Positions 3,508 to 60,766 of a stretch of 64,000 bases of DNA are shown piece by piece. Position 1 is the stretch's first letter, and each line of letters starts with the position of its first letter. Below the pieces are notes generated by a model. It was not told the origin of the DNA. It did no database searches and worked only from the letters and a program-made list of their open reading frames with translations. This DNA comes from an uncultured Candidatus Saccharibacteria bacterium (GTDB taxonomy: Bacteria > Patescibacteriota > Minisyncoccia > Phycocordibacterales > 2-02-FULL-43-11): positions 66,238 to 130,237 of the forward strand of contig CAYGDO010000002.1 of the NCBI GenBank assembly GCA_964348785.1, written 5' to 3'. Made by a program: the position numbers and the translations under genes.

Positions 3508-4791
3508 TTATAAATAAATAAGGGGATTCAAATAAGCACGTAGGTCCGCAACAGGCATTATATAACTACCACTACAAACTTTACTCTTTCTACTCATTAT
3601 TTGAACACCTTGAGTGGCATAAACAGTAAAATGTAAATGTGGGCCAGTCGAATAACCAGTATTACCTGAATAGCCAATAGTTTGACCTGTAGAAACTTCT
3701 TGTCCTGCCCCACTAACCTCAAAAGCTGAAAGATGGGCATAAAGAGTTGAAAGACCATTTGGATGTTCAATTAGAATCCATTTACCATAAGAAGTTCCTG
3801 GGCAAGCGGTATCCGTATTACCAAAACCCTTAACAATTCCACCAAGAGAAGCTTTTATTGCCGTTCCAACATTTATAGCCAAATCGATGCCATTATGACC
3901 AGAACCGTTATAAAGTTGAGGATTAGAAAGTGCAAATTTTGTATTACCAAAATATTGACTAATTTTTACCTTATCAAGAGGCCACTGTAAAATACCTTTG
4001 CCTGTTTTTGGATAACTATCAGGATCAATAGCAAACTTAAGTTGAGATTCAAACTCTAAAAGTTCTTTTTCAAAAGCGTCCTTGTTAGCTAATTGATTTT
4101 TTAATAATTTTTGATACTCGGATTCTTTATTTTTAGTTTGAGTTAACAATTTTTCTTGTTCAGCTTTCAAAGATTGCGAGACTTTTTTGTTTCCCAACAA
4201 TTCTAAATTCAAATTCTCTAATTGTTTCTTTATCAAAAGAGCCTGCGCTTTATCTTTCTCTAAACCTTTTTTTGTAACTTTCAAATCTGTAATCAATTTT
4301 GATAGATTAGAAGAGAAAATCTGGTTCTGTCTTAAAGATGACCAATACTCTGACATATTGTCATAAGCCAAAACTGTAAAAATCACCGATTTTGATTCTA
4401 AAACTTCAGTATCCTTAATTGACGATGCAATACCGTCAACGCTTTTTTGTATAGATAAATTTTTGTTATCTATATCAAAACCCAATGATTGAATTTCCAA
4501 CTTTTTACCACCAATTTTCTGTTCAGTGACTTTTATTTGAGCGGTAATCTTTTTCATTTCACCGTCATATATCTTAATTTTATTACTCAAAGTATTCTGA
4601 GCATTTCTAGAAGATTGTATCTGCTTCTCAGTGTTAGCAATTTCTTCCTCCAAAGCTTTAATAGCGTCTTTTCGCAATTGAATTTTACTTTGCAACTCTT
4701 CTGGAGTTTCAGAAAATACAAAAGAAAAACTGACCACCCAAACGAGCGTCAAAAATAAAATAGCCCTTATCTTAAACTGGCACTTATCCAT
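3508..4791 (-). CDS. M23 family metallopeptidase (murein endopeptidase) with N-terminal coiled-coil, EnvC-like
   Basis: Signal/TM, long coiled-coil, 'HNGIDLAI' and 'GNTGYSTGPHLHFTVY' LytM/M23 motifs. Confidence 0.85.
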   Translation of the reverse strand: MDKCQFKIRAILFLTLVWVVSFSFVFSETPEELQSKIQLRKDAIKALEEEIANTEKQIQSSRNAQNTLSNKIKIYDGEMKKITAQIKVTEQKIGGKKLEIQSLGFDIDNKNLSIQKSVDGIASSIKDTEVLESKSVIFTVLAYDNMSEYWSSLRQNQIFSSNLSKLITDLKVTKKGLEKDKAQALLIKKQLENLNLELLGNKKVSQSLKAEQEKLLTQTKNKESEYQKLLKNQLANKDAFEKELLEFESQLKFAIDPDSYPKTGKGILQWPLDKVKISQYFGNTKFALSNPQLYNGSGHNGIDLAINVGTAIKASLGGIVKGFGNTDTACPGTSYGKWILIEHPNGLSTLYAHLSAFEVSGAGQEVSTGQTIGYSGNTGYSTGPHLHFTVYATQGVQIMSRKSKVCSGSYIMPVADLRAYLNPLIYL

Positions 4792-6133
4792 TTATTAATT
4801 TTACCGCAAATTCTATTCTTTTTATTGTTTCGTTCTTCCCCAAGACAGATGCGATTGTAAAAGGGTCTGGAGACTTTTCCTTGCCAGATAGTAAATACCT
4901 AAAAGGCCACAATACCTCTCCCCTTCCATTGCTTTCGGCAAATGGCCAAACAACTTTTTTTATATCCTCAGCGGAAAAATTAGCATCGTTCATCGAAGAT
5001 ATAATTTCCAAGATTCCATTAAGATTCTTTAAGACAGAATTGAGATCACCCTTACCTTTCCAAATAAGATTTTCTTTTTGAAAATTTGGTTGAGCAAAGA
5101 AAAACTGTAAATCATCGTTTGCAACCATAATATCAATATCACCAAACTTATTTATTCGTTCAGTAATAATTGGTTCAATCTTAGAAATCAAATCTTTTTT
5201 ATATCCAGAAATATTATTTTTACTCAACCAATTATCATAAATTTCCTGTCTTTCTTTAGAATCAATTCTTTTTAGATGTTCCTTGTTAACCCAATCTAAT
5301 TTTTCTTCACTCCAAATCGCACCAGCCTTCTGCACTCTTTTTAAATCAAAGACGTTAACTAATTCTTCTAAAGAAAAAATTTCTTGATTATCTTGAGGAT
5401 GCCATCCTAAAAGAGCCAAATAATTTATAATGGCCTCTGGCAAATAACCTCTTTCTAAAAATTCTCTGAGTGCAACAGAACCCTGTCTTTTAGAAAGTTT
5501 AGATCTATCAGAAGCTAAAACTAGAGGTATATGAGCGTATGACAAACCTTTTAAACCTAAAGCCTCTCTAATCAATATTTGCCTTGGAGTATTAGCTAAA
5601 TGCTCCTCCCCTCTTATGACATGGGTCACCCCCATAGCATCGTCATCTACCACATTTGCGAAATGAAAAATCGGTTCATCAAAAGATCTTGCTATAACAA
5701 AATCGCCAAGATCAGAAGTATTAACTTTCACTTCTCCATGTATCAAATCATTAAAAATAACGTCTTTGTTTGGATTTTTAAATCTTATAACCTCATCTTT
5801 CTGCCCTTCTTCCAACACGGTTTCTTTTGATATATAAGCAATACCCTCATTAACAAGTTTTTCAATTAACTTACGATATAGAGGTAAATTGTCTGATTGT
5901 CTATAAACAGGGTCATTATCCCAATTAATGCCCACGAGTTTAAAACCTTTTATGATATCTTCCTCATACTCTTTCTTATTTCTTTTTTTATCAGTATCTT
6001 CAATTCTTAATAAAAATTTACCACCATTTTGTCTAGCAAATAAATAAGAAAATAACGCACTTCTAACACCGCCAATGTGCAAGTACCCGGTCGGACTTGG
6101 AGCAAATCTAGTTACAACTTTTGAATCTTTCAT
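4784..6133 (-). CDS. gltX: glutamate--tRNA ligase
   Basis: 'RFAPSPTGYLHIGGVRSALF' (HIGH) and 'KLSKR' (KMSKS) class I motifs. Confidence 0.9.
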   Translation of the reverse strand: MKDSKVVTRFAPSPTGYLHIGGVRSALFSYLFARQNGGKFLLRIEDTDKKRNKKEYEEDIIKGFKLVGINWDNDPVYRQSDNLPLYRKLIEKLVNEGIAYISKETVLEEGQKDEVIRFKNPNKDVIFNDLIHGEVKVNTSDLGDFVIARSFDEPIFHFANVVDDDAMGVTHVIRGEEHLANTPRQILIREALGLKGLSYAHIPLVLASDRSKLSKRQGSVALREFLERGYLPEAIINYLALLGWHPQDNQEIFSLEELVNVFDLKRVQKAGAIWSEEKLDWVNKEHLKRIDSKERQEIYDNWLSKNNISGYKKDLISKIEPIITERINKFGDIDIMVANDDLQFFFAQPNFQKENLIWKGKGDLNSVLKNLNGILEIISSMNDANFSAEDIKKVVWPFAESNGRGEVLWPFRYLLSGKEKSPDPFTIASVLGKNETIKRIEFAVKLING

Positions 6134-6137
6134 AAAT

Positions 6138-7262
6138 TTATTGATGTGATAAAGAAATTTTTATAAGTTCCTCAGCGATCTTTTTAGCAGAATCTGGTTT
6201 GAAAAAAGCCTTAGCTGAATCAGACATCTTATTTAACAACTCTCTGTTTTCCAAAAGACGTTTAATCTCGGAAACCAAAATAATCGGGGATAAGTTAGAT
6301 TCTTCAACAACTAAACACCCACCAAATCTAGCATAGTTGTAAGCATTTTTTCTTTGATGATCTCCATTAGATTCTGTAATCGGAATAATGATTGAAGGTA
6401 TACCCCAAGATGCAATCTCAAAAATTGATGAGCCTGCTCTTGAGATTATAAAATTGGCCGATCCTGCAACCATAGACATTGCCTCATCGTCAAAATAAGA
6501 AAAAGGATGATACCTCGTCAAAAAATTAACATTGTTTACCACTATAGAAGCTCTCTCTTTTACGTCCTTTATATTACTACGTCCTGTTTGATGTATTACC
6601 TGACAAAATTTCAAAAGTTCCGGCAAAGAAGACAAGATTATCTCATTGATTTTTTCAGCCCCCGAAGACCCGCCCAAAACCAATAAAACTGGCAAATCGT
6701 CTTCAAGGCCTAAAAAATTAAACGCTTCTTCTTTTTTATGTTTTTTTATTGAATCTCGAACTGGCTGTCCCACCCAAGCAGTTTTATTCTTTGGAAAAAA
6801 ATCTGCTGAATCTGGATAAGAAACAGCAACTCTATTTGCTATTTTTCCTAAAAATCTATTAGCGCGCCCTGGGATACTATCTGACTCGTGAATAATCACT
6901 GGTATGCCCCAAATCTTAGCGGCCAAAACTGTAGGGAAACTTGCAAAACCACCCTTACCAAAGACGACATCGGGATAAATCAAAAAAAGTTTAAACCAGG
7001 CGATAATAAAACCAAAAATTGTTTTAAAAATATCAATGAAATTTTTAAAAGAAAAATATAATCTAAATTTTCCAGCCGGTATTTTTACAAATTTTATACC
7101 ATATCTTCTAAGAGTATTTTCATCATAAGGATCTGGAGCACAAAAATACAAAGTTGGTTCAAGCAACTTTTGCTCTTTTACTATCTGCCTTATTTCTTCA
7201 ACTATGGCGATTATGGGATAAAAATGACCACCGCTACCCCCGCCAGTAAAAACAATTTTCAT
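6138..7262 (-). CDS. murG: undecaprenyldiphospho-muramoylpentapeptide beta-N-acetylglucosaminyltransferase
   Basis: 'MKIVFTGGGSGGHFYPIIAI' MurG N-terminus. C-terminal GT28 domain. Confidence 0.9.
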   Translation of the reverse strand: MKIVFTGGGSGGHFYPIIAIVEEIRQIVKEQKLLEPTLYFCAPDPYDENTLRRYGIKFVKIPAGKFRLYFSFKNFIDIFKTIFGFIIAWFKLFLIYPDVVFGKGGFASFPTVLAAKIWGIPVIIHESDSIPGRANRFLGKIANRVAVSYPDSADFFPKNKTAWVGQPVRDSIKKHKKEEAFNFLGLEDDLPVLLVLGGSSGAEKINEIILSSLPELLKFCQVIHQTGRSNIKDVKERASIVVNNVNFLTRYHPFSYFDDEAMSMVAGSANFIISRAGSSIFEIASWGIPSIIIPITESNGDHQRKNAYNYARFGGCLVVEESNLSPIILVSEIKRLLENRELLNKMSDSAKAFFKPDSAKKIAEELIKISLSHQ

Positions 7263-16361: not shown

Positions 16362-19300
16362 TTACTTTAAACTTTTAAGTAAGCTCTTCAAACTGTTTGA
16401 GAGAGACTGCAAGTTGTTAATTAATTGTCCAGCTTGACGATCAAAATACGCCTGACCTGCTGACGGCTTAAAAAATGTATTGATGACAGTACCACCAGTT
16501 TTAGGATTAATTTGAAAAACCGCAAAAGAGTTCGACAAAGAATCGTAGGCCCTTGCCACACCTCCAGCATCTATTTTTAGTGAAGTTTTACCATTCATTG
16601 CGTCAGTTACAAAATCTCTAGCACCTTTTATATACTCCTTAGTATTTTTAAATCCAAATTTCTCTGCATGTTTCCCAGCATGATAAATTGCATTATCGGC
16701 CAACGTTAACTTGGTTCCTTTACTCCAGATACCCTCAAAGACTGGCACCACTTTCCCCGCGGGTATCTCCCCCGCAGTCAATGCCCCAACGGCCGCCATC
16801 CCATAATTTCCTTTATCTACATCATCTATTACTTGGCTGACAGCAACTTGCCCAAGTGGAGTGAGTAACGATTGGGCAAAGGAAGTTATCTGTGGAGCGT
16901 ACATTGTCAAAACCCCTGCAACAGCCACTAGAGCTGGAAGAAACCTCCCATCCGGGTCTTTGTAAGTTACGGGATTATTACCTCCATACGAATACGAATT
17001 CTGAACTTGAGGATTTAAAAGAGCTTCCTTCCCTTCTTTACTCATCCCCACTTCCCAAAACACCGGATCCTGATTAAGAAACTGCCCTCTTGCTCCATCG
17101 TAGTAACGAGCATTAAGGTAAGAAAGTCCTGTACTTGCATCAAACTCCTGCCCTATATACTTCCTCTGTTCTTTTGGAGAACCTCCTTCATCTGCCCTAA
17201 TACTACCATAAGGATAATAGTCGATTAATTCCACAACTTTACCAGCGGTATCTGTGGAGAGAGTAATAGAACCAAGGTGGTCGATTAAGTGGTAAGAGAG
17301 AGATGAAGATGACGTTAGGTCTATAGGCTTTAGCTGGCGGATTGTTCCTCCTTTTTTGATTAAGACGCCACCTCCTTTCTTAACTAGAAGCTTGGAGGCT
17401 TTGAGGTTGATGTAGAGAGTGGAGTCTGCTGTGACAGTAAGAACTTTACCTACAGGGACAATGACAGAAGCGGGAGCGGTAACGGAGCCCACAATAGTAC
17501 ACGAAGAAATCAGCGTGAAATCTCCTGTTTCTGGAATAACACAAGTACCAGCGTTTGCATTTGTTAACTTTGGAGCTACGGGTGTCTTTTTGTCAAAAGT
17601 GGAGAGTAACGTGTCGCCCACAAAAACGTGAGAAGTCTCGGACACAACAACGTCGTCAGAATTGTATCCTGCGTTGAAGTATTTAGATGGATACAAAGTA
17701 ACACCGCCTTTCCCATCAGAAACCTTCACCCTAGCGCCTCCGTGATCATAAGCGTAAGTGGAAGTGGCGAGACCGTTTGCAACAGAAATTAGGCGGTTGT
17801 TGTAGTCATATATATAGGAAATATTGCCAAACGAAATCAAATTACCACTTTTGTCGTAAGAGAGAGTGTTGGTTGCCACAGAACTACCGGTAACCGTCGA
17901 CGCGTGGGGGTTGGCGTAATCGGTACCATCATAAAAATAGTTAGTAGTTGTAAACTTCCCCACAGCACTACTAAATGGGGTATTTTCATTAAAAATAGGA
18001 GCTCCGAAAGCCGTGAGATGGTATGCATTCGCCGTAAAATCGTAATAATTATTGCCAAGTTTGTAGTAAGCAACAAGATTGGCCTCATTCCCACTCAACT
18101 CAGTAAGATAATTGCTATCCAAATCAACAAGCGAACGACTTGTATTCCAAAATCGGACATCGTCAACAAGACCGTCCCAATTATGCGGATTTGGGAAAGT
18201 GGCCTTACCGATAGCCAATTCATTAAACCCGCCATAACCTCTACCGACAGCAAGAGTGGGGCCTTTCACCAAAGTATGCCCGCTGCTAGTTGATGTTGCC
18301 AAATACAAGTTCATTTCTGTGCCATTGTAAGTTCCGACAATATGGTACCAAGAGCCGACAGAGAGGGTGGTGTCATAAATTATTCTTGCCCCCCCAACTC
18401 CTTCTATATGCCTGTCAAAATTAATGTGGTGAGATCCGTCAGTATAGCTTGTAGATAAAGAGTAACCGACATTGGTCACAGCATCCTGTTGAGACGCAAT
18501 AATATTGAACCCAGCGGAAGGCAAACTTTCAGGTTTTATCCAAGCCTCTATAGTAATAGGTCCCCCAGAAATACCAGCATTAGTTGGGACGGAAGCATAC
18601 TGACTAGAGTCTCCTTCAACATCTAAAGAATATGGGTTGAGTGAAACTTGCCCTTCAATTTTACTAATAATATTTCCAAGCGGATTGTAAGCAAAAGATT
18701 GTTGATTTGGCGTCGCCAATGCATCTACCAATCGATACAAATCATCATACTTATACGTCGCGATTTTCTTTGTGTTGGTTTCCGAATTATCCACAATCTG
18801 CAAAATATTTCCGACAGAATCGTAAGTGTAGGACAAATTTTGAAGTTGTAAGTTGTTAGCTGAAAGAGTCTTTTTATTTGTTAAGCGATAAAGTCGCGCT
18901 GGATCATAGGTATTTGTAGCAACAACACCATTACCATAAGTAATCGTTTTTAGCTGACCAAGTGGCGAATAATCAAAAGCGCCGATTTGCGTTACAGGTG
19001 TAGTTGTGGAAACTCCAGTTGCCGATATTGAATCAACTAAACCTGCGGAATTGTATATGTATGAAGTTTTTTTGGAATCAACGCCGGTCATTTCTGTCAC
19101 ACCTCCTCCTAAATTGTAGAGATAACTTGAAATGAAAGTTTTACCTCCAATAATTTTAGTTTCAGTTTTTGCTTGCCCCGCGGGGGTGTATGCGTAGCTA
19201 GTACTATTCATTTCTAAATTTGCCCCGACAGAATCATCGGCATAAGAAACCGCACAAAGCTTACCGATGCCGAAATCACAGGCGTCATAAGTGTAAGTTG

Positions 19301-22300
19301 TCCTAACACCTACAGGGATAGTTGAAATTGGAGAAGAAGCTGCCTCAATTTTCCCCAATCTATTCAACGAATCGTAAGTATAAACTGTTCGCGTACCATT
19401 CGGATCGGTTTTCCCCGTAAGATTGCCGACATCGTCATACTGATATGAGTAAACCCCGAAAGCGGTGTCACTTGGCGTGTGCAAATCTTCCGCCAAAAGT
19501 CGTCTACCGGAAAAGTCATAAGTGAAATTACGAATATTTTGAAGCGCATCTGTGATTTTTACAAGATTTCCTAAAGAATCATATTCATAAAATGTGGAGT
19601 AGGTGTCGGGATAATTAAATTCATCCACACGAGTAAGTCGGCCAAAAACATCTTTATAATATATTTTACTTTTACCGAGCGTGTCGGTAATTTTTGTCTG
19701 ACCGGGACTGAAATATGTATTGGTCGTCCCTAAAGCGTCAGTTTTCTGCACATTCCTACCGAGTGCATCATAAGTAAAGCTAGTATACAAAGAACTGTCA
19801 CTCGTGGCAGAAGTTTTACCTGAACCGTCACTAAAATATGGCAAAGATTGTTTTCCAACGCGACCCTCAGAATCATAAATTATGTCTGACACAATAAAAG
19901 TATTGGGATTTTCAGATTGTTTTCGAGTTTGTATCTCCCTACCAATGCCATCAAAATAAGTGTAGGTTTCGTTTGAAAGAGTACTGTTTATGAAATCAAC
20001 TTTTTTAACAGAAATATTATTTGGAGTATCTGTGTATTGATAAATTGTTTTTGTCACTAAAGAAGCCGAAATACCCGAAACCACGACGGAATTTCCGTCA
20101 GGCTGTTTTTCTTGAAGAGTACGGCCAAAAGCGTCGTATGCTTTGGAATAAATTTGATTATTTGAATCGGTGATTTGAATTGGCTTTCCTAGAGCGTAAT
20201 CGTAAAGATAAGTGGTTTTTTGATTCAAATGATTAGTGACTGAAATCGGAAAAAGATTGTATGTGTCGTAAGAATAACCGGTAGAATTTCCATTTGCATC
20301 GGTTGATGTTGCCACAAGCGCAAACGGATTGTATGTTGCAGAAGTAATGGAATACCTACCATCAGAAATCAAAGATTCTTGTTTTGTGCCATTGCCTTCT
20401 AAAAGTTGACCAAAAGGTAAATCATCAAAATATGTTTTTGATTCCGAAATCACATTTCCAGATTGCGAATTAGTAGTTTTATGAGATACCTCGTAATGAA
20501 TTTGTATTGAAGTTGAAGTGGAAACGCCCGCGTTTGAAGCGTACTCAACATTAGTTATAGTTTTGTCATTTCCAATATCAACAAAAGAATAAGAAGCGAG
20601 CGTGTTTGTTGACGCGGAAGTTACCTCGCCATAATCAACAGAAGAAATTAAATTGCCATTTGAGGTATCGTATGAATATTCCGTAGCGTGATCTTTGTGA
20701 GAAGTCGTGCCGTCAAAACTTTCTTCAATCTTTTTAGAAAGATACACAAATACCGGTGCGGAAGAAGTAAAGCCTGCTGAATTTACTCCCGCTAAAGGAG
20801 ACTCACTATAAATATTTTGATTTCTGGCGAACAACTTACCCTCCCTATCAAAAACTTCTGTTTTATATACAGAGCCGATTTTGCCGTAACTATCCCCTGT
20901 TTCTCCAGTTGAAGAGTTATCACCATTCCCCTGATGAAAATATGAAATTGTCACAGATTTTCCGGAATCTTTTGTAACCTTGCCAAATCCGGCAAATTTT
21001 CTATCGTGCGAACCGTTAAAAAATCCTTGCCCATCTGCGTAAGTGTATGTATCTACTTGTGGCTCTCCACCCACGCCATCGGTTGTAGTTATTTTGGACA
21101 CAATCCAAAGAACTGTTGGCAGTTTTAGATTAAACCGCTCACCCGAAGCGGAAGTTTTGTAATCAATAGATGTTTTTCCGCCTTGCGGGTAAGTTATAGT
21201 TTTTAAAATATCCGCTCTTGTTGTGGGGCCACTTGGAATATCAACGAGGGTGTCACCGTTGGTGTCATAGTAGTCGGTCAGTTGATAGGAAAAATTCCAC
21301 TTCCAATTGTAAGGATTTATTTTAATAAAATATGGAGACTTGAGGGTTGAACTTTTTACAAATCCATTTCCTGTATTTATGTAAACTTCATTATAATCCC
21401 CTGTTGTGTACCCGTTATCAAAATTTGGGTTGTTTGGCAAAACCCAACCACGCAAAACATCAACTAGCCCGTCAGCGTTAATATCCAGATACCGAACCCC
21501 CATATCATTACCGTCACCATCAGTCATCATTAATGTGTGGTCAGGTGAATCACCAAAAATAGGAACCATTGGTCCAGTTAACCCCCCATCTCCAGTACCT
21601 ATACGAAAAGAACTGTATCTATCGCTAGTCTTTGTATCATCTAAACCATCACCATTAACATCCATCGCACCCACTCGCCTCCTCTCCTCCCACCCAGATA
21701 TTTCGCGTCCATAAATTTCTGGTAGGCCATCTCCATTTGTGTCTGCAACGAAAGAGCCTTTGGCTACTAGCAAAGGAGTGGTAGTTGATATGTATGTATA
21801 ACTATTATCCAAACTATTAATACCGCTATTCAGATAAAGTGTCGGTGGATTGGGAGGAGGAGGACAGGTGGCGTTGGTACAACTACCTGCATTAAAGAGT
21901 GTAACCGGAACACCGAAAAAATCAGTTAAACCGTCACCATTCAAATCCGCAATACGCGCACCACTATCCTCTGGGCCTGAACCGTTTGAACCCCTAGTAT
22001 GATAAGCAAATCTTAAATTAGGTAGGGAATTTGAACCCGCTACGCCTAACTTGTTCCACTCCACCTGAATATTAAAACTATTTGATTCATAAGGGTTAAT
22101 TCCAAGCACAAATGAATCTGTGTAGCCATCACCATTCAAATCAGCATAAACATCTCCCCCTCTTTCTGGACCGTAAAAGAAAGAGCCGAGAGCCCAACTA
22201 AACGTACCGGATGAAATAGCAGGCTCAAGCCCCGTCGGTAAAACAGGATTTTCAAACCCCTTCGTGTACTCAAAAGTTGTTTGCGGTAAAGTTGTTGCAA

Positions 22301-23615
22301 CGTTTTGGGAGTCGTAGCCAGTTTCAGTAATTCCTGAAAGGATTGAACGTACGCCGTTTACACCAACTCCGTAGGCAAATTCGTATTTCTTTTTCAAAAT
22401 ATCACTGACACGAATTTCAATTATTTTGAGTCGTTTGGCATTGGTACTTAAAAATGCAAACTTGTATGAAGAAATAGCACTGTCTGAACGAGTATCTTCA
22501 TATACAAAAGTGACTTTGTAAATTCCAGATACAACTTCTCCGGAATTTGCCTGATGATTGGTATAAGTAATTTCAGTTGGATATACCTGACCGCCAGTTA
22601 CCGTATAGTTATATGAAATGTAATTACCGTTTGAATCACGGACTTCATCTAGATACCATTTAGCAACACGAGAAGCATTTGCAGGGTCCGCGTTTCGTGA
22701 AGTTGCCACCGAACCGAAAGTGTAGACTCTGCCGTTTTTATCATAAACCTTCCAACTCGTAGTGGTGGCGTTGTAAACATATTTCAAAAATTCGCCGGAA
22801 TCAACGCGAGGTTGATATAAACCAGCAATTGTAGTTGAGGCTAATTCACCGGATAAGCTGGAACTGAAATAATCTTGACCATACATTACTATATTTCCCT
22901 GCTTATTGATTCTCTCAATTGATGGAATGTTAAAATCCCAACCATACCCCATCGTATTTATGTTGGAATTCTCGGACGAGTTATATGAAATATTTAAAGA
23001 TGTCTCAACACCTGCCCTACCGGAAGGTGTAACAATCGGATAGGAATATGAAAGCGCTCCCGAGGAAGCATTGGCTTCGGGAAGAGTGGTTTTTCTATAA
23101 GCAAAATTGGAATTATCGTAAGTGGTTGGCTTGTTTTCCAACTGAGCGCTAGTGGCTTCAATTTCTGGAGGTAACAAGTCTTGCGCGTCCGGAGAAACCT
23201 CTGGAATTTCAGTGTCCAACTTTGGAGCTTCCGGAGCAATCTCGGGCACCACTTCAGTTTTTGGATTTGCATCTACAGTTGTTTCGGGAGTTATTTGTGT
23301 CGGGTCAGGTAAAATAGTAGAGCCTATTTCAGAATTTTCTGATGCAGAACTGCTTGGTGTTGATGTATCAGGAGAAACGTTGGTCTCAGCTGGGGTAGAT
23401 GGAGATGCAGTTTGGTCAGAGGAGGTTTCAACGGAAGCTACGGGGACAGGAGGTTGCGAAGCAACCTCCTGCGCAAACGCCACAGCAATCGGTTGCATTA
23501 AAAAAGCAACCACCAAAAAACTGGTTACGATTTTTTGCGTATTTGATTTTCTTATTTTCTTTGTAGAAACAATTGAAAAAAAGAAATTCATAGAATTTTT
23601 ACTGACACTTCCCAA
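16362..23615 (-). CDS. Tc-toxin-like TcB/TcC fusion / RHS polymorphic toxin: signal, S/T/P linker, SpvB domain, FG-GAP beta-propeller, YD repeats with LamG insertion, RHS core, C-terminal toxin domain
   Basis: SpvB-like N-terminal region. 'ADLNGDGLTD/DVNGDGLDD/LDINADGLVD' FG-GAP repeats. Many YD repeats ('YTYDALGR','YEYDSLGNL','YQYDDVGNL'). RHS core 'YHLIDHLGS...YYPYG...RYYDGARGQFLNQDPV...NPVTYKDPDGRF'. About 195-aa tip follows. Confidence 0.85.
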   Translation of the reverse strand: MGSVSKNSMNFFFSIVSTKKIRKSNTQKIVTSFLVVAFLMQPIAVAFAQEVASQPPVPVASVETSSDQTASPSTPAETNVSPDTSTPSSSASENSEIGSTILPDPTQITPETTVDANPKTEVVPEIAPEAPKLDTEIPEVSPDAQDLLPPEIEATSAQLENKPTTYDNSNFAYRKTTLPEANASSGALSYSYPIVTPSGRAGVETSLNISYNSSENSNINTMGYGWDFNIPSIERINKQGNIVMYGQDYFSSSLSGELASTTIAGLYQPRVDSGEFLKYVYNATTTSWKVYDKNGRVYTFGSVATSRNADPANASRVAKWYLDEVRDSNGNYISYNYTVTGGQVYPTEITYTNHQANSGEVVSGIYKVTFVYEDTRSDSAISSYKFAFLSTNAKRLKIIEIRVSDILKKKYEFAYGVGVNGVRSILSGITETGYDSQNVATTLPQTTFEYTKGFENPVLPTGLEPAISSGTFSWALGSFFYGPERGGDVYADLNGDGYTDSFVLGINPYESNSFNIQVEWNKLGVAGSNSLPNLRFAYHTRGSNGSGPEDSGARIADLNGDGLTDFFGVPVTLFNAGSCTNATCPPPPNPPTLYLNSGINSLDNSYTYISTTTPLLVAKGSFVADTNGDGLPEIYGREISGWEERRRVGAMDVNGDGLDDTKTSDRYSSFRIGTGDGGLTGPMVPIFGDSPDHTLMMTDGDGNDMGVRYLDINADGLVDVLRGWVLPNNPNFDNGYTTGDYNEVYINTGNGFVKSSTLKSPYFIKINPYNWKWNFSYQLTDYYDTNGDTLVDIPSGPTTRADILKTITYPQGGKTSIDYKTSASGERFNLKLPTVLWIVSKITTTDGVGGEPQVDTYTYADGQGFFNGSHDRKFAGFGKVTKDSGKSVTISYFHQGNGDNSSTGETGDSYGKIGSVYKTEVFDREGKLFARNQNIYSESPLAGVNSAGFTSSAPVFVYLSKKIEESFDGTTSHKDHATEYSYDTSNGNLISSVDYGEVTSASTNTLASYSFVDIGNDKTITNVEYASNAGVSTSTSIQIHYEVSHKTTNSQSGNVISESKTYFDDLPFGQLLEGNGTKQESLISDGRYSITSATYNPFALVATSTDANGNSTGYSYDTYNLFPISVTNHLNQKTTYLYDYALGKPIQITDSNNQIYSKAYDAFGRTLQEKQPDGNSVVVSGISASLVTKTIYQYTDTPNNISVKKVDFINSTLSNETYTYFDGIGREIQTRKQSENPNTFIVSDIIYDSEGRVGKQSLPYFSDGSGKTSATSDSSLYTSFTYDALGRNVQKTDALGTTNTYFSPGQTKITDTLGKSKIYYKDVFGRLTRVDEFNYPDTYSTFYEYDSLGNLVKITDALQNIRNFTYDFSGRRLLAEDLHTPSDTAFGVYSYQYDDVGNLTGKTDPNGTRTVYTYDSLNRLGKIEAASSPISTIPVGVRTTYTYDACDFGIGKLCAVSYADDSVGANLEMNSTSYAYTPAGQAKTETKIIGGKTFISSYLYNLGGGVTEMTGVDSKKTSYIYNSAGLVDSISATGVSTTTPVTQIGAFDYSPLGQLKTITYGNGVVATNTYDPARLYRLTNKKTLSANNLQLQNLSYTYDSVGNILQIVDNSETNTKKIATYKYDDLYRLVDALATPNQQSFAYNPLGNIISKIEGQVSLNPYSLDVEGDSSQYASVPTNAGISGGPITIEAWIKPESLPSAGFNIIASQQDAVTNVGYSLSTSYTDGSHHINFDRHIEGVGGARIIYDTTLSVGSWYHIVGTYNGTEMNLYLATSTSSGHTLVKGPTLAVGRGYGGFNELAIGKATFPNPHNWDGLVDDVRFWNTSRSLVDLDSNYLTELSGNEANLVAYYKLGNNYYDFTANAYHLTAFGAPIFNENTPFSSAVGKFTTTNYFYDGTDYANPHASTVTGSSVATNTLSYDKSGNLISFGNISYIYDYNNRLISVANGLATSTYAYDHGGARVKVSDGKGGVTLYPSKYFNAGYNSDDVVVSETSHVFVGDTLLSTFDKKTPVAPKLTNANAGTCVIPETGDFTLISSCTIVGSVTAPASVIVPVGKVLTVTADSTLYINLKASKLLVKKGGGVLIKKGGTIRQLKPIDLTSSSSLSYHLIDHLGSITLSTDTAGKVVELIDYYPYGSIRADEGGSPKEQRKYIGQEFDASTGLSYLNARYYDGARGQFLNQDPVFWEVGMSKEGKEALLNPQVQNSYSYGGNNPVTYKDPDGRFLPALVAVAGVLTMYAPQITSFAQSLLTPLGQVAVSQVIDDVDKGNYGMAAVGALTAGEIPAGKVVPVFEGIWSKGTKLTLADNAIYHAGKHAEKFGFKNTKEYIKGARDFVTDAMNGKTSLKIDAGGVARAYDSLSNSFAVFQINPKTGGTVINTFFKPSAGQAYFDRQAGQLINNLQSLSNSLKSLLKSLK

Positions 23616-58907: not shown

Positions 58908-60062
58908 TTAGATTTTGAACTCAATCACATCTCCATCCTTAACAACATACTCTTTGCCCTCAGTCTTCACCCATCCTTTTTCTCGAGCAAGAGAATAAGA
59001 ACCAGCTTCAAGCAGTTTGTCCCAATGTACAACCTCAGCCCTTATAAATTTCTCTTTAAAATCTGTGTGTATTGCCATACCTGCAATTGGCGCAGTAGAA
59101 CCGACTTTAACAGTCCAAGCCCTGGTTTCGTCTTCACCGGTCGTAAAATATGTCATGAGACCTAAAATTTCATAACTTTTTACGATTAAGTCATCTACAC
59201 CTCCCGCAAAAGCACCCATTTCTTTTTTCATTGTTTCTTTTTCTTCACCACTCATATCTTTCAAATCACTTTCAACTGAAGCATCAATCAAAACCCAACC
59301 CGAATTTGTTTCTTTGAAAAATTCCATGAGTTTAGTCCACCGAGGATCAACTACTTCACTTGCCCCGTTAGAAGTAGCCCCTCCCGCCGCGGGCGGGGCG
59401 TCAGTTCTAATGGGGTCCAAATTTTTACCTCCTGATTTTTTGTTTAAAACATAAAGAATTGGCTTTGAGGTCAAAAGATTTACTTGCTTTAAAATATTTT
59501 TCTCATCTTCAGTTAAAACAACACTGTTAGCCAATTTACTATCTTCTAAGACTGGTTTGATTTTTGATAAAATTTCGTGCTCAGCGATCGCTTCTTTTTT
59601 TCTAGCTTTTACATCTTTATTTAAGGATTCCATTCTTTTTGTAACAGTTTCAAGATCAGACAAAATCAATTCTAAATTTATAACCCCAACATCTCTTAAT
59701 GGATCAATTCCCCCATCAACGTGAATAACCTTGTCATCTTCAAAAATACGAACTACTTCAGCAATCGCATCTGTTTCTCTAATATGAGATAAAAATTTAT
59801 TACCCAAACCCTGACCTTCTGACGCTCCTTTTACAAGCCCGGCAATATCTACAAATTCGACAATGGCGGGGATAGTTTTTAATGATTTACTAAATACAGA
59901 TAATTTTCCTAGTCTATCGTCTGGCACGGCAACCACCCCAACTGACGGGTCGATAGTACAAAATGGATAATTTTCAGCTGGAACACTCTTCTTTGTTAAA
60001 GCGTTAAAAAGCGTTGATTTGCCGACATTCGGTAATCCCACAATCCCAATTGATAAATTCAT
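58908..60062 (-). CDS. ychF: ribosome-binding ATPase YchF/Ola1 with in-frame 18-aa insertion
   Basis: 'IGIVGLPNVGKSTLFNALT', 'NYPFCTIDPSVGVV', 'VDIAGLVKGASEGQGLGNKFL', TGS C-terminus. Insertion 'PIRTDAPPAAGGATSNGA' is encoded by the palindromic element at 59362-59415. Confidence 0.9.
   Translation of the reverse strand: MNLSIGIVGLPNVGKSTLFNALTKKSVPAENYPFCTIDPSVGVVAVPDDRLGKLSVFSKSLKTIPAIVEFVDIAGLVKGASEGQGLGNKFLSHIRETDAIAEVVRIFEDDKVIHVDGGIDPLRDVGVINLELILSDLETVTKRMESLNKDVKARKKEAIAEHEILSKIKPVLEDSKLANSVVLTEDEKNILKQVNLLTSKPILYVLNKKSGGKNLDPIRTDAPPAAGGATSNGASEVVDPRWTKLMEFFKETNSGWVLIDASVESDLKDMSGEEKETMKKEMGAFAGGVDDLIVKSYEILGLMTYFTTGEDETRAWTVKVGSTAPIAGMAIHTDFKEKFIRAEVVHWDKLLEAGSYSLAREKGWVKTEGKEYVVKDGDVIEFKI
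59362..59415. repeat. MITE-like palindromic element copy 1, in-frame inside ychF
   Basis: TIRs GCCCCGTTAGAA ... TTCTAATGGGG flank GC palindrome cccgccgcgggcggg. Local GC spike. Confidence 0.5.
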
Positions 60063-60102
60063 ATTAAATGCGAAACAACTAATAACAAATGACCACTTCT
60101 CG

Positions 60103-60146
60103 CCCCGTTAGAAATAGCTCTTTTAAGAGCGTTATTTCTATTGGGG
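60103..60146. repeat. MITE-like palindromic element copy 2, intergenic upstream of ychF
   Basis: Same TIRs GCCCCGTTAGAA ... TTCTATTGGGG with a different internal palindrome AGCTCTTttAAGAGCG. Confidence 0.5.
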
Positions 60147-60210
60147 CCGACATTCGGTAGGCCTACAATCCCAATTGATAAACTCATATTAAATGCGATG
60201 CAACTAATAA
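60146..60210. repeat. about 65-bp direct duplicate (roughly 90% identical) of the ychF 5' end, including a start codon and the first 10 codons (copy at 60021-60085)
   Basis: gccgacattcggtaggcctacaatcccaattgataaactcatattaaatgcgatgcaactaataa versus gccgacattcggtaatcccacaatcccaattgataaattcatattaaatgcgaaacaactaataa. The two copies flank element copy 2. Confidence 0.5.
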
Positions 60211-60292
60211 TAAACCGCCAATCAAAGACATAAAAAAGAGTATATATTAAATACTCATCATTATCTAGATTAATCTATTAAAAACAAAAAAC

Positions 60293-60766
60293 TTAAAAAC
60301 CCTTCGTAACACATCCGGATTTAGAAGTGAAATCCCATTCAGCATTACCGATATACCAACCAGACGCATTATAACCCAAACCGCATACTATATATCTATT
60401 TACTCCATCAAACACAGATATGGCATATCTAGGAACTGAAATATCACTAGTCCAACCACCACACGCGACACCGCAATATCTAAAACCTGTATCTGTTATA
60501 TTTGGCAGAACAGCCACATCACCATTACAAACATTTCCTCCTCCAAGGGCATCGCTTGCTGGAATATTCAAAGCAACTCCACCATTCAAACAATTATGTG
60601 CCACATCATTTACAACCATCATCATCTGAATTATCTTCGCCTGTTTAGCTTTTGTCCTTGCACTACTTAAGCTTGCAAAAACTACTGAAGATAAAACTCC
60701 AATTATTGATATAACCACCAAAAGTTCAACTAGAGTAAAAGCTTTATTACTATGAAAAATTGACAT
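60293..60766 (-). CDS. type IV pilin / pseudopilin-like protein with prepilin N-terminal methylation motif
   Basis: 'KAFTLVELLVVISIIGVLSSVV' class III signal. Cys-rich C-terminal globular part. Confidence 0.75.
   Translation of the reverse strand: MSIFHSNKAFTLVELLVVISIIGVLSSVVFASLSSARTKAKQAKIIQMMMVVNDVAHNCLNGGVALNIPASDALGGGNVCNGDVAVLPNITDTGFRYCGVACGGWTSDISVPRYAISVFDGVNRYIVCGLGYNASGWYIGNAEWDFTSKSGCVTKGF

Follow-up and report, generated by a model that had tools for sequence, protein, structure and literature searches.

In a 64,000-nucleotide stretch of an uncultured Candidatus Saccharibacteria bacterium (contig CAYGDO010000002.1, positions 66,238 to 130,237 of the forward strand; here called the window), the conserved gene ychF carries one short palindromic element inside its coding sequence and a second one directly upstream of its working start. 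These two hairpins, HP1 and HP2, are best explained as two copies of a miniature non-coding palindromic repeat family that are passengers of ychF, either selfish or fossil, and we consider this explanation probable. The best-supported description of the element is that of a non-autonomous palindromic repeat behaving like the palindromic elements of Rickettsia. A small mobile or repeat element had already been suggested by the sequence-only reading, an earlier inspection of the window made from its letters alone, and this suggestion is supported by an exact empty site in related ychF alleles and by a large family of similar hairpins elsewhere.

The working ychF coding sequence (58908-60062, minus strand) is an open reading frame (ORF) of 384 amino acids with the Pfam domains MMR_HSR1 and YchF-GTPase_C and the architecture of the YchF/OLA1 ATPases (a G domain with P-loop, an inserted coiled coil and a C-terminal TGS-like domain), and matches the solved YchF structures 1JAL (E = 6.6e-97), 8KIE and 2DBY. 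The core of HP1 (59363-59415) has 53 nt and reads CCCCGTTAGAAGTAGCCCCTCCCGCCGCGGGCGGGGCGTCAGTTCTAATGGGG on the plus strand, with the outer arms CCCCGTTAGAA and TTCTAATGGGG enclosing a GC-rich inner stem. Together with CAAG on the coding strand it constitutes a 57-nt block (59359-59415, minus strand) that is translated in frame into the 19 residues PIRTDAPPAAGGATSNGAS. The core of HP2 (60103-60146) has 44 nt and belongs to the same subfamily, with the layout GAA-ATAACG-stem-CTAT-TTC. Both copies possess the arms of the family as terminal inverted repeats and both fold much better than shuffled sequence (z from -3.1 to -6.1).

The closest homologue without the extra residues is P0003, a protein of 365 amino acids encoded on four contigs of the Joint Genome Institute (L123-L126) and 92% identical to the window YchF over the aligned positions. 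In the empty-site allele L123 the sequence TTGGA|TGAAG stands in the place of TTGGA[CCCC...GGGGCAAG]TGAAG in the window, and the two genes therefore differ by an exact insertion of 57 nt, or 19 codons, consisting of the 53-nt hairpin and CAAG with no duplication of the flank. All four contigs show the exact empty site and lack the upstream structure: the pilin gene and the ychF ATG are separated by a plain spacer of 52 nt. The comparison with relatives, proposed as a check by the sequence-only reading, thus bears out the in-frame palindrome that it described, whereas the window protein is 19 residues longer than its 365-residue relatives and not about 21 as estimated.

The alignment of the window protein to Haemophilus influenzae YchF (1JAL) splits into two blocks, query residues 2-217 and 253-383, one on each side of the insertion, which maps between 1JAL residues 217 and 230. 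The insertion had been assigned to the junction of the G domain and the helical/TGS part; it is instead placed inside the G domain, right after the G4 strand. An AlphaFold model of weak quality (mean predicted local distance difference test score 66), used solely for this local statement, shows residues 220-236 as a low-confidence coil between a strand and a helix. HP1 is a 53+4-nt insertion read as 19 amino acids in a permissive variable loop. Among the best 120 YchF homologues the basal post-G4 loop has five residues, E-x-x-D-E/P, and an insert of the type P-I/V-R...S-N-G-A-S, intact or decayed, is found in at least 10 proteins. In a neighbour-joining tree the hairpin-bearing proteins are found at seven or more places, and in each of these the sister is hairpin-free. 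Two insertion points are used in this loop, NLD|E and LND|E, which share the form GA|YGAA.

These data bear on the notion that HP1 is a native, vertically inherited extension of the YchF loop in which the palindrome is incidental. The length of the post-G4 loop does vary over Parcubacteria and several loops look decayed, ending in ...GASE. On the other hand, the exact empty site in the closest relative, the scatter of hairpin-bearing proteins over the tree and the presence of the same hairpin in unrelated genes and phyla contradict this notion, which we regard as very improbable. The loop as such is hypervariable in Parcubacteria YchF, from 5 to 27 residues, and a second recurrent type of insert, for instance DTNTRIGANDTN, is encoded by ACGAAT-like direct repeats that are non-palindromic. 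Inserts of this 'TN.RI' type were considered as palindromic elements and rejected, given that the corresponding DNA of locus L222 (10640-10700) consists of such direct repeats and is unfolded (-0.9 kcal/mol).

The hairpin family was delimited by scanning one genome per GTDB species with the pattern CCCCRWTAGAA-N(10-40)-TTCTAWYGGGG. The scan yields at least 120 loci in many phyla, with 125 matches listed; about 17 chance matches to this degenerate pattern are estimated. The motif search proposed by the sequence-only reading thus favours a repeat element through copies in other genomes. Within the window, a relaxed search recovers HP1 and HP2 as the sole paired-arm copies (0-1 in shuffles). The family consensus is R-CCCCGTTAGAA-RY...RY-TTCTAACGGGG-Y, a terminal stem of 14 bp around a core of about 5 to more than 100 nt. 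Among the matches listed, to which the following counts refer, exact 11-nt arms are present in 109 of 125, and the stem is longer than the arms by one further pair on the outside (95/125) and two on the inside (106 and 84/125), beyond which pairing ends. Identical 4-nt flanks border 72 copies (58%), an identical 5-nt flank borders one, and within the 4-nt flanks the two outer positions complement one another (T..A or C..G). The sharp 14-bp stem, the 4-nt flank repeats and the in-gene length rule of 3n+2 nt described below are all features that the search pattern does not demand.

The listed hosts comprise Planctomycetota (Pirellulales and Phycisphaerae), Omnitrophota, Nitrospirota, Desulfobacterota, many classes of Patescibacteria (one of them through a single-cell genome), Elusimicrobia, Riflebacteria and a few others, and the stem is shared by at least eight phyla. 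The core lengths peak at 32/33, 53, 59 and 62 nt and subfamilies can be distinguished by eye, such as one of 59 nt in Planctomycetota and one of 53 nt in Omnitrophota. Several copies occur in some genomes (L066, L117 and, over five contigs, the metagenome-assembled genome (MAG) UBA1562). No Rfam family matches the window hairpins at E<=10, nor 18 family loci at the gathering threshold, nor locus L041 at E<=10, and literature searches by sequence and by topic retrieved no description of the hairpin. CRISPR repeats are ruled out by the single, non-arrayed copies, and a phage origin by the finding of 2 matches among 2.9 million viral contigs.

Some loci deserve separate mention. An identical 32-nt variant, CCCCGTTAGAAATCAAAGATTTTCTAACGGGG, is present in a Saccharibacteria MAG and in Planctomycetia MAGs (L017, 112-143; L040, 225-256; L117, 95-126 and 162-193), which reflects either a recent transfer between phyla or contamination during binning. 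The Nitrospirae contig L066 contains at least five copies within 600 nt (6500-7110), ranging from minimal hairpins of 29 nt to a copy of 103 nt with TGGG flank repeats. In L104 the cores of two 62-nt copies (3598-3659 and 5370-5431) are reverse complements of each other; one copy precedes a hypF-like ORF, the other is in frame within that ORF, and no transposase lies between them.

The relation of the family to genes is distinctive. Copies within ORFs amount to 34 of the 125 matches listed, and 27 lie in long ORFs (at least 40 codons on each side), where 59% of random positions fall; genes thus contain fewer copies than expected by chance but do contain some. All 27 long-ORF copies are 3n+2 nt long, in frame and free of stop codons. 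Under a looser criterion, the ORF survives the in-silico removal of the element plus 4 nt in 29 of 32 copies, whereas for copies of other lengths removal restores an ORF in only 5 of 45, and these copies are therefore taken as intergenic. Such a pattern is a signature of selection on real insertions, and it follows independently from the 3n+2 rule and the ORF-preserving removal that 4 nt accompany each insertion. Each arm holds a stop codon (TAG or TAA) in one frame and leaves the other two open, which are thus free of stops through both arms on both strands. Such stop-free frames, combined with the 3n+2 length, would allow the element to survive inside genes. The reading is P-V/I-R...S-N-G, as in the window, in 23 of the 27 in-gene copies and P-L-E...L-T-G in the remaining 4. 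The host proteins include UvrA, DNA polymerase I (PolA), IF-2, GlyRS, PheT, HypF, PrmC, a DinG-like helicase and MutM, and the copies show no consistent relation to gene starts or ends.

A recurrent target is the leader or signal peptide of pilin-like proteins in Planctomycetota and Riflebacteria, where the hairpin is found at GFT|LIE (L027, 1815-2576 and 3360-4235; L047, 1465-2358; L086, 1654-2238). In the example RRGFT[PLE...FLTGFT]LIELL the element and its TTTA flank regenerate the G|FT cleavage motif, and the insertion therefore falls in the part of the pilin that is removed.

Eight hairpin copies located in ychF could be compared at the DNA level. Their arms and the short segments CT(G/A)ACG and CTACT are conserved, while the inner stem differs from lineage to lineage yet stays paired: 92% of the cells are paired and 8 of 18 pairs have changed on both sides, a level reached by 0 of 500 shuffles and far above that of slid controls. 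The arm codons CCC, AGA, TCT, AAC and GGG have identical third positions in all pairs over seven lineages, compared with 41% third-position identity at invariant residues elsewhere in ychF. All eight copies have the same orientation and the right flank CA(A/G)G. This pattern fits neither vertical descent with neutral drift nor a textbook cut-and-paste miniature inverted-repeat transposable element (MITE), and it constitutes the main unexplained point of the analysis. Candidate explanations are that an element bringing its own 3' tetranucleotide was gained several times, that the hairpin itself is under selection, or both.

Selection on the hairpin is the essence of a further alternative, in which the palindrome is a functional cis-acting structure, such as an mRNA stabilizer, an attenuator, a terminator or a protein-binding site. 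The synonymous invariance of the arm codons and the persistent pairing of the variable inner stems speak in its favor, as do the terminator-like score of the HP2 inner stem and the 22 intergenic copies, among the matches listed, that lie within 30 nt of a stop codon. Palindromes, however, can keep their arms matched by template-switch 'quasipalindrome correction' without selection. Moreover, copies are placed at unrelated positions in unrelated genes and in intergenic DNA, close relatives manage without the hairpin, and HP1 has no T-run. A functional structure is consequently judged improbable.

We infer that the passenger element moves in one of two ways, through a DDE enzyme that generates a 4-bp target duplication or as a single-stranded hairpin that is handled by an HUH-type enzyme and takes a 3' tetranucleotide along. 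The second mode corresponds to a distinct alternative, in which the same family is mobilized as single-stranded DNA by an HUH/Y1 enzyme similar to those of IS200/IS605 or of the repetitive extragenic palindromic (REP) sequences, their hairpin-forming doublets (REPIN) and the REP-associated tyrosine transposases (RAYT), brings its own 3' tetranucleotide and inserts beside a matching one. The copies are very short (29-62 nt) and are essentially a single hairpin, and in a substantial class, to which all the ychF copies belong, one flank is C(A/G)(A/G)G whatever the other may be. The ychF block is likewise a hairpin plus CAAG without duplication, the seamless empty site in the 92%-identical relative is compatible with precise excision, and HP1 bears GTAG next to its GC-rich inner palindrome in a REP-like manner. 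The family also shares with the REP/REPIN-RAYT systems short GC-containing hairpins, conserved inverted arms, a variable spacer, many copies and the lack of an enzyme of its own. On the other side, the outer 4-nt flank positions are mutually complementary, and symmetric targets are typical of the staggered cuts made by DDE enzymes. REPs and REPINs are species- or genus-specific and flank the RAYT gene, and their families are extragenic and lineage-specific; the hairpin described here is often inside genes, as HP1 is, and its arms are common to several phyla. No RAYT or other Y1/HUH gene was found in the search, which covered the window and the surroundings of the listed copies. We hold movement by an HUH/Y1 enzyme to be unlikely.

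The search for a mobilizing enzyme was extended to other candidates. A parent autonomous insertion sequence (IS), that is, a long element bounded by the arms and containing a transposase, was not found in a search limited to about 1 Mb; the long arm-bounded segments encountered are merely separate small copies flanking pilin-like or unrelated genes. Small stand-alone GIY-YIG ORFs are located near the hairpin in L101 (5053-5310, 37 nt away) and L114 (1613-1918, about 630 nt away). An association with GIY-YIG nucleases was discarded, being limited to these two loci with no enrichment.

Several observations weigh against the interpretation of HP1 and HP2 as copies of a mobile repeat. The flanks of the window copies (TGGA/CAAG for HP1 and TCGG/CGAG for HP2) show no 4-nt duplication, both copies known in the 64 kb are at ychF, and no further one turned up in about 400 kb surrounding ychF in other Parcubacteria. 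None of the 49 window ORFs belongs to a transposase, HUH or integrase family, and the local copies may for this reason be fossils; nor does any conserved neighbouring protein or transposase recur near the copies of the 120 loci listed. Copies of 29-32 nt are unusually small for DDE-type MITEs. In the ychF set, the contrast of 100% versus 41% third-position identity could mean selection on the hairpin itself, and the shared orientation and flank fit a common origin or a self-carried 3' tetranucleotide better than independent cut-and-paste events with target duplication. Finally, no donor was found for the substitute leader of ychF, which is described below.

The upstream region of ychF is occupied by two direct repeats of 69 nt, 90% identical, each containing an ATG and the first 14 codons. 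Copy A (60021-60089, minus strand) includes the substitute leader (60063-60089) and, after it, the working ATG (60060-60062) with the first ychF codons, whereas copy B (60146-60214, minus strand) includes the leader, a decoy ATG (60185-60187) and 14 ychF-like codons. The sequence-only reading had recognized both repeats, with their identity and their start codons, and the second palindrome at 60103-60146 between them; all of this stands, except for the extent of the repeats, given then as 65 nt. In the decoy copy HP2 begins after the GG of the Gly14 codon, in the Walker A motif. It is separated from the substitute leader by a 13-nt linker, CGAGAAGTGGTCA (60090-60102, minus strand), which is also found in the relative L127 as CGAGAGTTGGTGA. 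The proposal that HP2 and the linker are a copy of HP1 and its right flank was dropped, as the similarity of the flanks is not significant.

The decoy ORF (60059-60187, minus strand) has 42 codons and translates to MSLSIGIVGLPNVG-PNRNNALKRAISNGA-RSGHLLLVVSHLI followed by a stop. Within it HP2 is read in the P.R...SNGA frame that is also used for HP1, and the TGA stop of the decoy ORF overlaps the working ATG (ATGA). The decoy start predicted by the sequence-only reading is therefore present, but it is only part of a history that involves a native remnant, a substitute 5' end and a tandem duplication. A third, older start is preserved at 60184-60231 (minus strand) as the short remnant MSLIGGLLLVASHLI, terminated by a TGA that overlaps the decoy ATG; the native untranslated region (UTR) and ATGTCTTT are identical to L123. 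Further upstream, a native promoter-like site (60239-60267, minus strand) was identified by consensus match; the end of its -10 hexamer, TATACT, is 7 nt ahead of the native ATG, and the same sequence is found in the intact relative L123 (1030-1065). On the coding strand the order is consequently the promoter-like site, the native UTR with ATGTCTTT and the short remnant, then the 27-nt leader with its ATG and 14 decoy codons, HP2, the 13-nt linker, the leader again and the working ATG.

Three window ORFs of 15, 42 and 384 codons, the last being the working ychF, thus form a chain in which each stop overlaps the next start as ATGA. Read from the sequence, the -10 spacing and this chain suggest a leaderless native transcript with translational coupling to ychF; the chain is broken in L127 and could be due to chance, for which a rough probability of a few per cent was obtained.

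The relative L127 exhibits a simpler or intermediate state, composed of the native UTR, 14 native-type codons now bearing a frameshift and a stop, and then a degenerate hairpin followed by the linker, the leader and the new ATG. The new start, M-S-L-S, is encoded by AGT TTA TCA and the native one by TCT TTA AGT, which specify the same amino acids with serine codons of different families; from codon 5 onward the new and native starts are identical. No other copy of the substitute leader exists in the window, in L123 or upstream of ychF in five other relatives.

HP2 sits exactly at the breakpoint of the native ychF 5' end, inside the Walker A codons, where a clean in-frame insertion would split the P-loop GxxxxGKS. 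In the proposed sequence of events the body of ychF would have been joined to the substitute leader, the ATG and the first four codons. A diverged ychF allele is the probable source of this substitute 5' end, and homology-facilitated illegitimate recombination (HFIR) is one process that could have brought it in. Later, a unit of 125 nt made up of leader, 5' codons, hairpin and linker may have been tandem-duplicated in the window lineage by unequal crossing-over, after which the oldest 5' copy would have been partly deleted. The hairpin may have caused the break or may just be present there. The arrangement resembles the HFIR of naturally transformable bacteria in the crossover within conserved ychF codons, the illegitimate joint at the hairpin and the recipient 5' end left as a truncated duplicate. 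It differs in that the event is deduced here from the sequence and no donor sequence was found.

Exchange between lineages is also indicated within the gene. The ychF of L127 is 93-100% identical to the empty-site lineage L123 over most of its length, whereas a patch of about 150 nt that surrounds the hairpin shares 95-97% identity with the window. As judged from these identities, L127 ychF is a recombination mosaic that carries the hairpin patch. Directly 3' of the insert the window and L123 differ sharply (VVDPRW versus EKGEKW). Taken together, the mosaic and this sharp difference show that the hairpin-bearing patch has moved between related lineages by homologous recombination. A metagenome scan for which the YchF protein served as query yielded distant relatives for the most part (<=76% identity) and no new occupied sites.

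Palindromes and short repeats can mislead assemblers, and the whole structure might in principle be an assembly or chimera artefact. Two independent Logan assemblies, made from different runs, nevertheless agree at every one of the 351 nt covering the upstream structure (100% identity), and both encode the same 384-amino-acid protein. A diverged homologous arrangement occurs in a third sample (L127), and the 3n+2 rule observed in genes across many studies is a signature of selection. The concern about an artefact, raised by the sequence-only reading, is in this way answered by independent assemblies: the HP1/HP2 locus is not an assembly artefact, and the chance of one is minimal.

Among the known systems, the closest parallel is provided by the Rickettsia palindromic elements (RPEs), described in a review (PMC10969869, after Ogata et al. 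2000) as elements of about 100-150 bp confined to Rickettsia. According to the same account, RPEs are palindromic non-coding repeats that lie in frame in unrelated housekeeping genes and are translated at tolerated sites (PMC10969869), as is the case here. The present family differs by its length of 29-62 nt or longer, its invariant 14-bp stem, its occurrence in at least eight phyla, its 4-nt flanks and its strict 3n+2 rule. As far as those descriptions go, the RPE families are set apart from the hairpin by length class and by hosts, which are here Parcubacteria and other phyla. The bacterial MITEs (Correia/NEMIS, ERIC, BOX and Nezha; PMC10969869) are similarly non-coding and dispersed, with terminal inverted repeats, short flank repeats and occasional ORF fusions. 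The hairpin departs from them in its much smaller size, in the conservation of its terminal repeats across phyla, in the window copies without target duplications and in that no matching autonomous IS was found. A likeness to integron attC sites was also noted, as the inverted cores GTTAGAA and TTCTAAC resemble GTTRRRY and RYYYAAC around a center of variable length. This candidate was rejected: the order of the cores is reversed (GTTAGAA...TTCTAAC versus RYYYAAC...GTTRRRY), the copies are single and scattered, and neither cassette arrays nor an integrase accompany them.

In-frame palindromic 'selfish DNA' in essential genes has hitherto been seen mainly as a Rickettsia oddity. Its occurrence in eight or more phyla, with a single shared 14-bp stem, points to a very widespread mobilizing activity or to extensive horizontal spread. 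The hairpin gives a concrete account of how conserved proteins of candidate phyla radiation (CPR) bacteria and others come to carry lineage-specific loop insertions, and P-V/I-R...S-N-G peptides in housekeeping proteins provide annotators with a signature that flags the element. The element may also help to trace how episymbiotic CPR bacteria exchange DNA with their neighbours. The locus in the window is itself the record of a gene with interrupted P-loop codons that is kept working through a substitute 5' end. A bolder proposal, which we put forward as possible and no more than tentative, is that the family represents a previously unrecognized class of cross-phylum mobile DNA adapted to genes, with stop-free arms and a length of 3n once the 4-nt flank is included, moving as a single hairpin with its own 3' tetranucleotide, served by a widely shared enzyme and spreading among co-habiting phyla. 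If so, the hairpin would spread among groundwater and sediment Patescibacteria, Omnitrophota, Planctomycetota, Nitrospirota and Desulfobacterota, and would be a general source of new surface loops in housekeeping proteins and, occasionally, of broken and rebuilt gene ends.

The ychF gene is preceded by a pilin-like gene (60293-60766) and followed by genes for a large surface protein and LeuRS. The best YchF homologues bear the names Candidatus Taylorbacteria or Paceibacterota, from which the window is assigned to a Parcubacteria (CPR) genome. The core genes of the window include those of ribosomal proteins, aminoacyl-tRNA synthetases, DnaK/DnaJ/GrpE and RpoA, and its base composition is AT-rich (33-37% GC). 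The sole GC-rich patch (40-42% versus 33-36%) is occupied by an ORF of 2409 amino acids (16365-23591, minus strand) with RHS repeat, SpvB, TcdB-middle and FG-GAP domains, which resembles a Tc toxin or an RHS polymorphic toxin; because of its GC-rich composition, a horizontal acquisition of this ORF is suggested.

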